Sequence record: OQ708376.1
Direction: 5' to 3' (one strand)
DNA: 64,000 nucleotides
DNA from: Escherichia phage vB_EcoM_CRJP21
Program-made: the position numbers and the translations under genes
Notes under the pieces: model-generated
Told to the model about the DNA's origin: nothing
Databases searched by the model: none
The model's input: the letters and a program-made list of their open reading frames with translations, nothing else
In this document: positions 1,522 to 26,801 of the stretch, piece after piece
Position numbering within the stretch: position 1 is the stretch's first letter
Layout: every line of letters begins with the position of its first letter

Positions 1522-1875
1522 ATGTTTAGTGAATATGAAGAAGCAATAAAACGCAACCTTGAAGATTACAACTTCCAATTTTATATTTGGGATGAACTGA
1601 TGAGATTGTGTTTACAGTGGATGGAAAATGGAGAAACTCCTGACCAACGAACTGTTATATTAAACATTTTGTTACATAAAGATCTTAGTTCAATTAATGT
1701 TGAAGTTTCTACTTATGTAGAAGAAGATTATAATCCCTATATTTCATATACTTCACCTGTACCAAAGACAGAAGAAGAATATTTTCAAATGAGTACTGTA
1801 CAAGAACCATTGTTCACTTATGAGTTCTATAAGTACTTGGTTGGTGAATTCAAAAAAATGCGAATTAATTCTTGA
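1522..1875 (+). CDS. hypothetical protein (117 aa), EEYFQ-motif family
   Basis: ORF downstream of promoter; C-terminal EEEYFQMSTVQE motif shared with the 3825..6568 family. Confidence 0.6.
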   Translation: MFSEYEEAIKRNLEDYNFQFYIWDELMRLCLQWMENGETPDQRTVILNILLHKDLSSINVEVSTYVEEDYNPYISYTSPVPKTEEEYFQMSTVQEPLFTYEFYKYLVGEFKKMRINS

Positions 1876-1940
1876 CTAAATAATTCAGTACTGAGGATAT
1901 TAATATGTTTAAAGATGAACGTCCAGATTTGTAAAAGTAC

Positions 1941-1969
1941 TTGACTAAATAGTTCAGTACTGATATAAT
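1941..1969 (+). promoter_or_regulatory. sigma70-like promoter immediately upstream of tRNA cluster
   Basis: ttgact 1941-1946, 17-nt spacer, tataat 1964-1969. Confidence 0.6.
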
Positions 1970-1975
1970 TAATTT

Positions 1976-2065
1976 AGTGAGTTGGATGAGTGGTTGAAAT
2001 CACTACCCTGCTAAGGTAGCATATGCGAAAGCGTATCGTGGGTTCGAATCCCACACTCACTGCCA
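1976..2065 (+). tRNA. tRNA-Ser (anticodon GCT), long variable arm
   Basis: acceptor agtgagt/actcact, T-arm gtggg-ttcgaat-cccac, anticodon loop ctgctaa, CCA. Confidence 0.8.
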
Positions 2066-2069
2066 ATAC

Positions 2070-2148
2070 GGGCCATTAGCTCACGCGTGGTTAGAGCAAA
2101 CGACTCATAATCGTTCGGTACGGTGTTCGACTCACCGATGGCCCACCA
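2070..2148 (+). tRNA. tRNA with CAT anticodon (Met or lysidine-modified Ile)
   Basis: acceptor gggccat/atggccc, anticodon loop ctcataa, CCA encoded. Confidence 0.75.
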
Positions 2149-2152
2149 ATTA

Positions 2153-2224
2153 GACTCTGTAGTTCAGCGGTAGAACGTCAAACTGTTAATTTGGTTGTCG
2201 GGGGTTCGAATCCCTCCAGAGTCG
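2153..2224 (+). tRNA. tRNA-Asn (anticodon GTT)
   Basis: acceptor gactctg/cagagtc, T-arm ggggg-ttcgaat-ccctc, anticodon loop ctgttaa. Confidence 0.75.
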
Positions 2225-2244
2225 CAAAACAATGCGAGGTATAA

Positions 2245-2502
2245 ATGGCATATTTCTTGATTCAAAGCGATGCAGATGATGAATTAATCGCAAAAACTAA
2301 AATTGACATTGCTGATTACCGAACAGTACTGGAAGCTATCCATTACTATGATGTTCGACACAAAGGTAATCGTGAACAAATTAAGAACTGGATTGAATCG
2401 GGTGAGTACAAGGTTGAATCTTTATCCATTTCAGGTGATGAATCTGAAGAAGATGGTTTTATTACTGAAACTATGTACTTAACTATTGAAAATCATTTCT
2501 AG
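2245..2502 (+). CDS. hypothetical protein (85 aa)
   Basis: ORF with SD-like gaggt upstream. Confidence 0.55.
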   Translation: MAYFLIQSDADDELIAKTKIDIADYRTVLEAIHYYDVRHKGNREQIKNWIESGEYKVESLSISGDESEEDGFITETMYLTIENHF

Positions 2503-2510
2503 GAATTTAA

Positions 2511-2912
2511 ATGAAAAAGAATGACTTGATCAAAATGCTTCAAGAAATTGACGGCAATCCAGAGATTGTTATTTGGAATGGATACGTCGATGATTATATG
2601 AACATCGAAAAAGGCTTGACTAAAATCACTCTAGTCAAAGAAACCGAACAGTTTCTTCAGGGTGCATTAGAGCACGAATGGTGTGAACGTAACAATACAT
2701 TCGACATTCCAGAAGACCAACGAACCAAGATTGCAGAACGTGCTAAAGAACTGCATAAGAAACGCGAATACGATTTCCAGAACCCATATGTCACTGAAGA
2801 CGAATTCAATCGCTGGTACGGTAAAAAGAAATTGACAAAGTATGTCCTTTCACCTAAACTACGTGGTAAGACTTCACTTGGTGTATTCAACGCCGCAGAC
2901 TTAAACTACTAG
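2511..2912 (+). CDS. hypothetical protein (133 aa)
   Basis: ORF tiling with neighbours. Confidence 0.6.
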   Translation: MKKNDLIKMLQEIDGNPEIVIWNGYVDDYMNIEKGLTKITLVKETEQFLQGALEHEWCERNNTFDIPEDQRTKIAERAKELHKKREYDFQNPYVTEDEFNRWYGKKKLTKYVLSPKLRGKTSLGVFNAADLNY

Positions 2913-2924
2913 CGGGTATTATAA

Positions 2925-24332: not shown

Positions 24333-24336
24333 TATT

Positions 24337-24528
24337 ATGTTGATTTATCAAAGTGATAATATTCGTGTTATGCAGCATCCCTACTTACAAATCTTTGATG
24401 TGCAGCAGTATATGGAAGGTGATGACCCAAGAACCTATGGTCGTAAGTATGATTACTTCACTGTAAAGCAGTGTAAAAATATTAACGAAGTACGACAATT
24501 AGTTCAAGAACTTCAAAACAAAGGTTGA
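24337..24528 (+). CDS. hypothetical small protein
   Basis: trimmed from track ORF 24283. Confidence 0.4.
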   Translation: MLIYQSDNIRVMQHPYLQIFDVQQYMEGDDPRTYGRKYDYFTVKQCKNINEVRQLVQELQNKG

Positions 24529-24554
24529 CTTCGGTCAGCCTTTTTTGTTATAAT
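24522..24554 (+). promoter_or_regulatory. PeSL-like cassette: terminator hairpin (UUCG loop) fused to early promoter
   Basis: ggttgac-ttcg-gtcagcc then T-run then tataat; TTGAC of the stem doubles as -35. Confidence 0.6.
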
Positions 24555-24582
24555 TCTCTTAATAAATTAGAGGATTTTAATT

Positions 24583-25023
24583 ATGTATGTATATCGTTTT
24601 GAACTTAAATTCAGTTACATTGAACCTAACTTAGAACCTGCACGAACTGTAGGTCCGTTTGCACGGTATTCAACCAGATACAGTACTAAAAATGGATTTG
24701 ACCGTTTGCTTATGACTACACCTTCTCAATTCCAACCTGAACCAACTGAGGATGGGATCTATTCAATCAAAAGTGGATGGGTATTTGGCTGTCAAAGTTT
24801 GAAAGATTTGTTCAGATTCTTCACTATGGACTTGGGTAAATTGCATCGTGCTGGGTTTGCTATATCTGTATATGAAGTTCCAGACCACCATGTAGACATT
24901 GGTCGTAATCAGGTTCAGTACTATTGCGGTAGTGCTAAATTAGTTCGTATCATGTCAGTTAAGGAAGCAAAGGATGAGTTCCGACAAAGTAAAAGAGAAA
25001 CACATGAGGTAATATATGGATAA
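24583..25023 (+). CDS. hypothetical protein (146 aa)
   Basis: ORF after PeSL. Confidence 0.6.
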   Translation: MYVYRFELKFSYIEPNLEPARTVGPFARYSTRYSTKNGFDRLLMTTPSQFQPEPTEDGIYSIKSGWVFGCQSLKDLFRFFTMDLGKLHRAGFAISVYEVPDHHVDIGRNQVQYYCGSAKLVRIMSVKEAKDEFRQSKRETHEVIYG

Positions 25024-25360
25024 AACTCAAATAGAATTAAAGAAATTTGTTTCATTCTATCTTCCTGATGACCCACGTAATTCACAAAAAGATATTGAAT
25101 ATTATAATATCCTATCTAAACAGTTAATGAGAAAGTTTCAACAGTGTTTAACTATATTCAATACAGATGGAAGACGTAGATACCGAATCGTTTCAATGAA
25201 TGATGAAAACGCAAATTTCTTTGATTACGATGTAGTTTTTAGAGCATATAATGATGATCGTATAAAATTAAATTATGATCAAATTATACTTGACCTGAAT
25301 GTTATATGTGTTATAATCACTCACGTAGCCGAACTTAATGGTTTTAAAGAATGGTATTGA
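25016..25360 (+). CDS. hypothetical protein (114 aa)
   Basis: ORF. Confidence 0.55.
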   Translation: MDKTQIELKKFVSFYLPDDPRNSQKDIEYYNILSKQLMRKFQQCLTIFNTDGRRRYRIVSMNDENANFFDYDVVFRAYNDDRIKLNYDQIILDLNVICVIITHVAELNGFKEWY

Positions 25361-25374
25361 ATAGAGGATAACAT

Positions 25375-25641
25375 ATGAAGCTTAAATTACAATATAATGG
25401 ATTTACTTTACGTAATGATACTGAATTTATTAATCGTTCTCCTGGTGCTGAACTGTTTTTACGAGAGATGAACATTCCTTTCATCATTACTACAGTGGGC
25501 GACCGTGAAGTTCTACAATATGCAGAGCATCCGATTATTGATGTTCCTTGGTACTCTGAGCATATGTACATGGATATGGCACGTCGCTACAACTGTAAGT
25601 TCGTAGTTGAAGGTGATAAAATTACAGTCGAATTTAAATAA
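25375..25641 (+). CDS. hypothetical protein (88 aa)
   Basis: ORF. Confidence 0.55.
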   Translation: MKLKLQYNGFTLRNDTEFINRSPGAELFLREMNIPFIITTVGDREVLQYAEHPIIDVPWYSEHMYMDMARRYNCKFVVEGDKITVEFK

Positions 25642-25653
25642 GGTAAATTAAAA

Positions 25654-25947
25654 ATGATCAGTACTTCAGTTAATGAAAGCATCGTCGCTGACGTAGAAAT
25701 GGTTAAAGAATGTGCAGATGAAACTCTTCGTGATATGTACATTAATGATTTAATTACTGAATACGGTAGTCGTGGTGTACACGAATTTATTCGTTTAAGT
25801 GGAGAGTTGATGAAAAATCGAATTCGTATGAAGCTTAACGTACATCCAAAAGCATGGGCATTTACATTAAAATACGCAGAAGATATTGTTAATTTGCGTC
25901 GAACTGAAGTATATGAACGTTTGCACAATGGTATGTTAGATAAATGA
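25654..25947 (+). CDS. hypothetical protein (97 aa)
   Basis: ORF. Confidence 0.55.
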   Translation: MISTSVNESIVADVEMVKECADETLRDMYINDLITEYGSRGVHEFIRLSGELMKNRIRMKLNVHPKAWAFTLKYAEDIVNLRRTEVYERLHNGMLDK

Positions 25948-25999
25948 TTGTAAAATAGGAATTCTTAAATGAATTCCTTTTTGTTTATAAGGTATAGTA

Positions 26000-26221
26000 A
26001 TGAAATATATAGTACTTGTACTGATATTATTCAGTACTGTTGTAAGTGCTAAACAAAAAGAATATGTTAAATGTATAAATTATGAAGAGAAATATGTTGA
26101 AACATATAAAAAAAGTATAATTAAAAACGTTTCGATTACTAACAGAGCAACAATCATTGTACTTAAAAATGGGTTAATTATGCTATATAAACCACACGTT
26201 AAATGTGAAATTATTAATTGA
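26000..26221 (+). CDS. secreted small protein
   Basis: signal peptide MKYIVLVLILFSTVVSA. Confidence 0.5.
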   Translation: MKYIVLVLILFSTVVSAKQKEYVKCINYEEKYVETYKKSIIKNVSITNRATIIVLKNGLIMLYKPHVKCEIIN

Positions 26222-26228
26222 GGAAATT

Positions 26229-26801
26229 ATGAATCGTAAAGGTCGTTTTAAAGTATCAAAAAAGAACAAAAGTTCTAGGTTTAAACCTATTGTTTTAACA
26301 GTTAAATCTAACAAAGATTTAACTGCACTTAGTAAAAAGATAATTTCATCTAAGATTGAAGTATCATACGTAAATTCATTAAAATATATGAATGTCAAAC
26401 CACTGGACCAACTCATTTCACTTATATTTGAACGTAATGATTTTGAGATATCAGTAGATGATTATAGAGCCTATAATGCTGGTTTCATTAATGTTACTTG
26501 TAATAAAAAACTAACTGAGTTGGAAAATTTGTCATGTATAATAAATCTAGATAAAGGTGTTGTGAAGTACCATTTTGTACATTTCACTAATATCAATAAT
26601 GGAATGGGTGTACAATCCAGACCTATAGTGCCTACGTGTGATGTTACTAAATTAGCAAAGCTCAATGATGAAGAATATTTTCAAGAAAGCATTGTAACTG
26701 AGCATTTAGATGATATAATAGCTACTTACAAAGAATGCATATGGGTGTTGAATGCTATAAAACCTAAATTGTGTTTAATGAATATTGTTCGTGATTTATG
26801 A
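26229..26801 (+). CDS. hypothetical protein, EEYFQ-motif family
   Basis: trimmed from track ORF 26205; C-terminal DEEYFQESIVTE. Confidence 0.55.
   Translation: MNRKGRFKVSKKNKSSRFKPIVLTVKSNKDLTALSKKIISSKIEVSYVNSLKYMNVKPLDQLISLIFERNDFEISVDDYRAYNAGFINVTCNKKLTELENLSCIINLDKGVVKYHFVHFTNINNGMGVQSRPIVPTCDVTKLAKLNDEEYFQESIVTEHLDDIIATYKECIWVLNAIKPKLCLMNIVRDL

Follow-up and report, generated by a model that had tools for sequence, protein, structure and literature searches.

Large eukaryotic DNA viruses carry multigene families of known immune-evasion or host-range factors, such as MGF110, MGF360, and MGF505 of African swine fever virus (ASFV) and the Bcl-2-like and ankyrin/PRANC families of poxviruses. 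Bacteria encode SUKH/SMI1-KNR4 polyimmunity arrays, which are thought to neutralise diverse toxins. A lineage-specific zinc ribbon expansion of about 35 copies in Bacillus phage G was called 'unprecedented' (PMC7824862), and an unspecific remark puts the paralogues of Klebsiella phage RaK2 at nearly 10% of its proteins (PMC3622015). Papers that remark on such paralogues give no family, motif, fold, or count, and our literature search found none that defines the family described here. The family was identified on a stretch of 64,000 nucleotides (nt) of Escherichia phage vB_EcoM_CRJP21 (sequence record OQ708376.1), hereafter the window, which was assigned by megablast to Asteriusvirus, a genus of RaK2-like jumbo coliphages of ~350–385 kb, and is 96–99% identical to phages G17, Sharanji, PBECO4, phAPEC6, slurp01, and 121Q. 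A set of its small plus-strand genes shares a conserved block near the C-terminus and belongs to one large, clade-restricted multigene family, of which an Asteriusvirus genome has ~61 copies and RaK2 no fewer than 45.

The family resembles those of ASFV and the poxviruses in that it consists of dozens of tandem, diverged paralogs on one strand, lies in variable regions towards the genome ends, is non-structural, and differs in copy number between close strains. As in the poxvirus Bcl-2-like family, the fold is apparently kept while sequence similarity is lost. Two traits of viral terminal multigene families were found, namely a 39-member array ~6 kb after the left terminal repeat and the deletion of one member in the window. 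Unlike the families of ASFV and the poxviruses, to which it has no sequence or fold relation, it occurs in viruses of a bacterial host and has one nearly invariant helix motif. With the phage G zinc ribbon it shares the presence of a single small domain at tens of copies in one jumbo-phage lineage, but it lacks metal-binding cysteines, reaches ~61 copies, and occurs in at least two genera (Asteriusvirus and Alcyoneusvirus). SUKH/SMI1-KNR4 arrays are likewise composed of tandem, small, diverged alpha+beta paralogs; membership in SUKH/SMI1-KNR4 was rejected, with no such Pfam match in 84 family members and no such chain among the fold matches.

A sequence-only reading of the window had listed seven genes with a common C-terminal block. 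All seven open reading frames (ORFs; members A–G in Table 1) are present on the plus strand with the quoted motifs in place, and their shared block has the consensus (T/S)EE-x-(Y/F)-F-(Q/M)-x-S-(T/L)-(V/I). Multiple alignment and profile hidden Markov models (HMMs) showed that they are true relatives. In a leave-one-out test against the 341 real ORFs of the window and ten shuffles of each, every left-out member ranked first of 3751 sequences, with E-values from 6e-8 (E) through 9.4e-5 (D), 7.5e-4 (A), and 0.051 (G) to 0.11 (F), and the shuffled controls thus give no ground to reject the relationship. With a genome-wide family profile, E-values were 3.8e-13 (A), 4e-11 (D), 9.9e-12 (F), 7.6e-10 (G), and 1.7e-12 for a further ORF, member H, which scored above all decoys. 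Pairwise similarity as assessed by blastp was uneven: B–C (1.6e-12 over 107 amino acids, aa), C–E (3e-7), A–F (9e-5), and B–E (6e-4) were linked, while links to D, to G, and between the groups B, C, D, E and A, F, G were weak.

Several single pairs, for example E–H and D–G, are not significant, as would be expected if the resemblance were due to chance; alternatively, the block could be a translated repeated DNA element. Against chance stand the first rank of all seven left-out members and a strict regular expression of the motif, which matched 42 ORFs in a complete related genome as compared to 0.05 expected from shuffles. All 42 are part of the HMM-defined family, and no decoy was recovered in either of the two genome censuses described below. 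Synonymous codons at the invariant residues are scrambled (phenylalanine, TTT 22 and TTC 20; glutamine, CAG 21 and CAA 19; serine, AGY 28 and TCN 9), and identity across the motif codons is 0.50 at third positions versus 0.89 at positions one and two; conservation therefore acts on the protein and not on a DNA repeat. Both explanations are refuted by these tests, and we regard their remaining probability as negligible.

The list of seven was correct as far as it went but missed member H and a probable ninth member, which carries the strict motif and was recovered with a combined Asteriusvirus and RaK2 profile (E = 2.2e-4) above all 3410 decoys. Judged by these profiles, the window holds at least nine members. 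A possible tenth scored just above all decoys with the same combined profile, at a non-significant E-value of 0.19, and carries the core motif, of which about four chance occurrences are expected per genome. A profile built solely from G-type sequences reached other family members at 7e-5; a G-type subfamily link for the probable ninth and possible tenth members was rejected, as this profile found neither. These two ORFs (55284–55470 and 42069–42270) and member G (26229–26309) have lysine/arginine-rich N-terminal extensions, unlike the acidic short members. The size first given for the family, 120–140 aa, was too narrow, as the listed members range from 117 to 190 aa. According to the annotation of the 99%-identical phage G17, which was used for gene starts, D, E, and F begin slightly downstream of the starts first proposed for them (5319, an upstream GTG; 5737; and 6113, respectively). 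For F, this is also backed by phrog_24027, the match to which begins at residue 16 of the longer ORF.

The census across a complete genome was made in EC22.5-2, an unannotated genome of 351,992 bp with ~98% identity that is deposited as an 'UNVERIFIED_ORG' record and in which ORFs were called mechanically. The search with an iterated profile (E < 1e-3) covered every ORF of 50 aa or longer and, as decoys, five shuffled versions of each. Successive iterations recovered 36, 51, 61, and 61 ORFs and none of the 6415 decoys. All 61 members are encoded on the plus strand, have 103–207 aa, and account for 10.1% of the gene-like ORFs and 8.0% of the genome. Thirty-nine of them form a near-contiguous main array at 57–85 kb, which starts ~6 kb inside the left terminal repeat boundary. 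Further clusters occupy the right-hand 80 kb, with ten members at 303–310 kb and the equivalents of A–F at 318.6–323.7 kb; elsewhere, members occur singly or in pairs.

RaK2 belongs to a different genus, and a profile built exclusively from Asteriusvirus sequences recovered 40 ORFs in the first 295 kb of its genome. After iteration, at least 45 ORFs (30 with the strict motif) and no decoys were obtained, including an array at 262–276 kb and two members directly after the threonine transfer RNA (tRNA-Thr) gene, as for B and C in the window. Iterated profiles can drift; the decoys, the regular-expression test, and the first RaK2 pass, in which no RaK2 sequence was used, agree with each other. 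The family is expanded in both Asteriusvirus and RaK2, and its expansion therefore predates the split of these genera. The remark on paralogues in the RaK2 paper probably describes the same phenomenon as seen by BLAST, which compares with 10.1% of ORFs in Asteriusvirus and at least 45 ORFs in RaK2 in the present census.

Beyond these two genomes, an exhaustive HMMER search of 1.84 billion (1.84e9) representative proteins with a 17-sequence profile recovered only 32 clusters. Except for one repetitive outlier, they have 87–192 aa, and they have in common the block (T/S)EE-x-(Y/F/H)-F-(Q/M)-x-S-T-V-x-D, with a helix-like segment after it. In some clusters, P0051 for example, features of the two subgroups among the seven listed members are mixed. 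Two divergent metagenomic members had tblastn matches only in RaK2-like phages, namely Asteriusvirus, the Salmonella phages Munch, 7t3, PHA46, and SE_PL, and Klebsiella phage fENko-Kae01. Word-indexed homolog searches returned mostly orthologs, and their sensitivity fell as the profile broadened.

No relative of the family was found among Pfam, NCBIfam, PADLOC, or PDB-sequence profiles with up to 84 members as queries, which yielded just scattered chance hits of single members and none that was consistent. For the nine window proteins, Pfam, NCBIfam, and PADLOC returned a single sub-threshold match, which concerns the ORF at 7952–8290 and not a family member. PHROGs spreads the family over 47 groups built from proteins of RaK2-like phages, among them 9317, 12674, 13866, and those in Table 1. 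None of the groups seen in detail has a known function, and no description is attached to any of the 25 that were listed. The window proteins are full-length members of their groups (E = 1e-56 to 1e-133). PHROGs keeps these groups separate, whereas here they are united by profile, motif, and two structure models. Structural matches in BFVD with a Foldseek probability of ~0.9 or higher are all uncharacterised, and the named ones all derive from RaK2-like phages (UB, PBECO4, CBB, fHe-Yen9-04, and pEa_SNUABM_47). Proteins of RaK2, GAP32, and fHe-Yen9-03 appear lower down amid unrelated viruses. Within the fold libraries searched, the modelled fold is thus without a characterised relative. Resemblance to the acidic p32/MAM33 fold (a helix, seven strands, and two helices) and to PD-(D/E)xK proteins was considered and had no statistical support, in the former case in structural comparison.

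Structures were modelled with AlphaFold2 for two members, C and G, using shallow family alignments of 39 and 43 sequences. The model of C (39 sequences) is a single domain with a predicted local distance difference test (pLDDT) score of 91.1 and a predicted template modelling (pTM) score of 0.83, in which a helix (residues 4–15) is followed by strands at 26–32, 44–51, 54–61, 64–68, and 76–79 and by helices at 87–96 and 104–114. The motif is exactly the second helix, α2 (residues 87–96). G, the most divergent member of the original list, was modelled with a pLDDT of 74 (~90 in the core); its elements follow one another as in C, with two additional strands, helices at 147–156 and 160–176, and a disordered lysine/arginine-rich tail (residues 1–27). 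Both models thus predict one compact domain composed of helix α1, a 5–7-stranded antiparallel beta-meander, and helices α2 and α3, with the motif in a helix 25–45 residues from the C-terminus and a second helix after it.

These models bear on the proposal that the block is a constant C-terminal module on variable bodies. That the family-wide signal resides almost entirely in the C-terminal 35–45 residues was confirmed, and the N-terminal parts do diverge: profiles of the N-terminal two-thirds recovered no left-out member, and in pairwise shuffle tests N-terminal similarity was clear only for B–C (z = 7.2), as compared to z = 3–17 for most C-terminal parts. The separation into module and body was not supported: in the models of C and G, each a single domain, the motif forms helix α2 and is joined to the remainder without an intervening linker or disordered stretch. 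Alignment of C-type and A-type profiles with hhalign extends over 99 columns (94.8%, E = 5e-8), while for F-type and G-type profiles the alignment to the remaining ones is restricted to 12–22 motif columns. The bodies look like diverged copies of one fold because B–C and the C-type and A-type profiles align over the body. Across 63 aligned paralogs, the most conserved positions are F91 (61), Q92 (60), V/I96 (54), S94 (50), E88 (49), and E87 (47), with weaker conservation in the body at Y49 (44/61), D80 (34/59), and I5. The hydrophobic moment of α2 is 0.02, compared with 0.31–0.35 for α1 and α3. A moment close to zero suggests that α2 is mostly buried on several sides and is not an exposed docking peptide. 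The block is therefore probably, as far as the models go, an integral pair of helices, α2 and α3, with the turn between them, and not a detachable module. The simplest history would be whole-gene tandem duplication with fast divergence outside this core helix pair, and no shuffling of a module onto unrelated bodies. We hold the conclusions on identity and architecture with high confidence.

Members of the family are real, selected genes, as evidenced by scrambled motif codons, Shine-Dalgarno-like sites, overlapping start and stop codons (overlaps of 1–8 nt between neighbours are frequent), and a ratio of nonsynonymous to synonymous substitution rates (dN/dS) below 1. Compared to phage WPEC3, proteins of family orthologs are 43–79% identical, and those of adjacent genes 68–100% (nine of twelve at 88% or more). 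The pooled dN is 0.224 for the family versus 0.087 for its neighbours, and the pooled dN/dS is 0.385 versus 0.179; replacement sites of the family hence evolve ~2.6 times faster than those of neighbouring genes, under selection. The most diverged 'orthologs', for example D at 43%, may be paralog replacements. Substitutions in family genes relative to the 98%-identical EC22.5-2 were too few for dN/dS to be used. Gene content also varies, as an extra member between A and tRNA-Ser is present in G17 (L001 4114–4497), EC22.5-2, and WPEC3 but not in the window. A promoter-like repeat of 30–41 nt (window 1462–1491 and 1940–1974) has one copy on each side of the 430 nt that the window lacks, which suggests recombination between promoter cassettes as a route of gene loss and gain.

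For the function of the family we tentatively favour, at somewhat less than an even chance, a diversified repertoire of intracellular, non-structural proteins that bind targets in host takeover or counter-defence. Helix α2 would be the central, largely buried core of the fold, with the T/S-E-E start as its N-cap and F91 and V/I96 as likely core residues, and the sheet and loops would be free to vary and to recognise different targets on a constant scaffold. The proteins would be made from host-type promoters and remain in the cell, each paralog would bind a distinct host or defence target, and the family would correspond, in phages, to the terminal multigene families that large eukaryotic DNA viruses carry. 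As the best explanation as a whole, encompassing identity and architecture as well as function, we consider the chances of this reading to be even.

Several properties of the proteins and their genes relate to this reading. Family members of EC22.5-2 are acidic (median isoelectric point 4.8, median net charge −9; median isoelectric point of other small ORFs 5.4), and inspection of the window members revealed no signal-peptide-like N-terminus or long hydrophobic segment. Of the 62 proteins identified in the virion of phAPEC6 (PMC7247149), none mapped to the family by an indirect match based on molecular weight and gene order, and the annotation of RaK2 assigns none of its members to the virion structural proteins. 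Of the near-consensus sigma-70-like promoters, 97 lie on the plus strand and 11 on the minus strand; because they are strand-biased and precede A and the unit of tRNA-Thr, B, and C, transcription by the host RNA polymerase is suggested. The T4-type late promoter TATAAATA was rejected as a marker of timing, as it is depleted genome-wide and uninformative. In EC22.5-2, the TATAAATA octamer occurs at 8 and 6 sites on the two strands, compared with ~54 expected from base composition.

Other observations weigh against diversified intracellular binders. A strong sigma-70-like site is present within 150 nt upstream of only 6 of the 61 members, and the literature yielded no transcriptome for the RaK2-like clade. 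The family dN/dS is raised yet well below 1, which does not demonstrate positive selection and would equally arise under relaxed constraint. A common N-terminal fold across subfamilies rests on two models and secondary-structure patterns, with F-type and G-type profile alignments limited to the motif columns mentioned above, and the burial of α2 is suggested by sequence periodicity and not by coordinates. Finally, the near-invariant polar residues Q (60/63) and S (50/63) and the EE pair exceed the usual needs of a folding core, and the near-invariance of Q and S beyond folding demand therefore leaves room for a shared functional site on this segment.

Such a site is central to the less likely, though serious, alternative that the family members are adaptors, in which an invariant α2/α3 face (E87, E88, Q92, and neighbours) would dock all paralogs on one partner while the sheet selects targets. 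This alternative restates, for a single domain, the suggestion of the sequence-only reading that the block may mark a shared partner-binding segment. Candidates for the partner are a conserved host hub and a phage-encoded machine, for example the RaK2 gene product annotated as a ClpA-like ATP-dependent protease. The extreme conservation of polar residues despite divergence elsewhere (Q 60/63, S 50/63, E 47/63 and 49/63), the confinement of the family-wide signal to this segment, and the annotation of ATP-dependent protease genes in the RaK2 record (ORF069 and ORF154) are in line with docking. On the other hand, with a moment of 0.02 α2 lacks an amphipathic face, and F91 and V/I96 are directed to different sides of it, which suggests that the helix is mostly buried; T/S-E-E is a common helix N-cap pattern. 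A narrower and improbable version holds that the ~60 paralogs are interchangeable substrate adaptors whose helix plugs into one machine (a phage ClpA/Lon-like protease or a host hub) and in which each paralog uses its hypervariable sheet to capture another host or defence protein. If true, the set would be the bacteriophage equivalent of the viral F-box/BTB/PRANC families and, to our knowledge, the largest single-domain gene expansion in a phage.

The same conserved residues could also be catalytic. Conserved acidic and polar residues are grouped where α2 starts and where the preceding strand ends, and the family might comprise small enzymes in which E-E...Q..S, perhaps with D80 (34/59) and Y49 (44/61), forms a catalytic or ligand site and paralogs differ in substrate. 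We consider this improbable, given that neither fold nor sequence resembles that of any enzyme family, that ~60 copies with extreme surface divergence would be atypical of enzymes, and that the supposed catalytic residues are replaced in selected members (L-Q-L-N in D; M for Q in F-type members). The motif also bears a superficial resemblance to an E-x-x-Y-x-Q protease site, as could be expected of packaged or ejected virion proteins with a shared targeting or protease signal, comparable to T4 internal or phiKZ inner-body proteins. A TEV-like site, E-x-x-Y-F-Q, was rejected, since Q is followed by a variable residue and this stretch folds as a helix. Other jumbo phages, phiKZ among them, have paralogous families of head proteins (PMC12676376), and phAPEC6 possesses an inner body (PMC7247149). 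Packaging is nevertheless highly improbable in view of the absence of the family from the 62 phAPEC6 virion proteins and from the annotated structural proteins of RaK2. Moreover, the motif lies within a confidently folded helix instead of an exposed linker and is C-terminal, with no conserved N-terminal signal detected by N-terminal-only profiles.

In this clade of 350-kb enterobacterial phages, several of which are under consideration for therapy, one uncharacterised domain is encoded by roughly one gene in ten and takes up about 8% of the DNA. Treating it as a single family merges many 'hypothetical proteins', scattered over 47 'unknown' groups, into one question, and the diagnostic motif can serve as a search pattern in annotation. 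The family also bears on why jumbo phages retain so many accessory genes. Should it turn out to be a diversified toolkit for counter-defence or host takeover, viruses of bacteria would have a parallel to the multigene families known from poxviruses and ASFV.

Table 1. Family members and associated features in the window of Escherichia phage vB_EcoM_CRJP21.
Feature	Length (aa)	Position	Strand	Motif (position, nt) and remarks	PHROG group
Member A	117	1522..1875	+	EEEYFQMSTV (1771–1800)	phrog_34619
Member B	141	3825..4250	+	EEKFFQYCLL (4125–4154); 8-nt overlap with C	phrog_17453
Member C	121	4243..4608	+	EESLFQYSMI (4501–4530); modelled protein	phrog_17453
Member D	139	5328..5747	+	EEMYLQLNFV (5625–5654); degenerate, weakest motif	phrog_35192
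Member E	138	5749..6165	+	SEMFFQLSTV (6049–6078)	phrog_17453
Member F	136	6158..6568	+	EEEHFMESTV (6449–6478)	phrog_24027
Member H	172	20674..21192	+	EENVFQQSLI (21028–21057); strict motif	phrog_28118
Member G	190	26229..26801	+	DEEYFQESIV (26667–26696)	phrog_33518
Possible tenth member	220	42069..42731	+	FQYSLI, core motif only (42576–42605)	
Probable ninth member	223	55284..55955	+	EEELFMYSTV (55809–55838); basic N-terminal extension	
Sigma-70-like promoter		1463..1490	+	TTGACT-16-TATAAT; 11/12 matches; 32 nt upstream of A; part of the promoter cassette repeated at 1940–1974	
Sigma-70-like promoter		3415..3442	+	TTGACA-16-TATAAT; perfect consensus; upstream of tRNA-Thr, B, and C	
Terminator-like hairpin with T-run		5281..5305	+	Between the B/C unit and the D-E-F unit; annotated terminator in G17	

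Seven tRNA genes (Gly-tcc, Ser-tga, Arg-tct, Ser-gct, Met-cat, Asn-gtt, and Thr-tgt) are located at 141–3808 and alternate in the first 4 kb of the window with members A and B and other small ORFs. Also beside the tRNA genes is a mini-family, separate from the main family, of tandem 54–66-aa ORFs that all begin with MTHEEWM (438–638, 1127–1291, and 1288–1452); a third tandem copy is present in G17. The genome ends of phage fEgEco12 were mapped experimentally (PMC13070987), and position 58150 of the window corresponds to base 1 of fEgEco12, that is, to the physical left end and the start of a direct terminal repeat of ~21 kb. GC skew and gene orientation change at the same position. In EC22.5-2, near-consensus sigma-70-like promoters are densest in the terminal-repeat region, where 18 occur in 20 kb. 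The terminal-repeat region also holds at least six copies, 81–89% identical, of a ~60–97-nt intergenic element (L012 271–367, equivalent to fEgEco12 ~20070–20166; EC22.5-2 35.1–48.3 kb).

Other paralogous genes were observed towards this end of the genome. About nine genes of 300–430 aa on the minus strand (42712–53733), annotated elsewhere as RCC1-like or 'DNA condensation' proteins, form an array of which several members are phAPEC6 virion proteins, and this region is the most variable among related phages. On the plus strand, three small paralog groups (six, four, and two members) of ~60–70-aa ORFs are located at 54265–57495, just before the genome end, and the probable ninth family member sits amid them. 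Small ORFs with signal-peptide- or lipoprotein-like N-termini were noted by eye at 19217–19462, 19830–20105, 23231–23590, 23982–24332, 26000–26221, and 29587–29838; multi-pass membrane ORFs, likewise recognised by eye, lie among the family members too, and 12653–13497 and 22526–23979 are also on this list. A 321-aa ORF at 15089–16054 resembles a sigma-70-family factor and corresponds to the RpoD-like sigma factor reported for Sharanji and RaK2.

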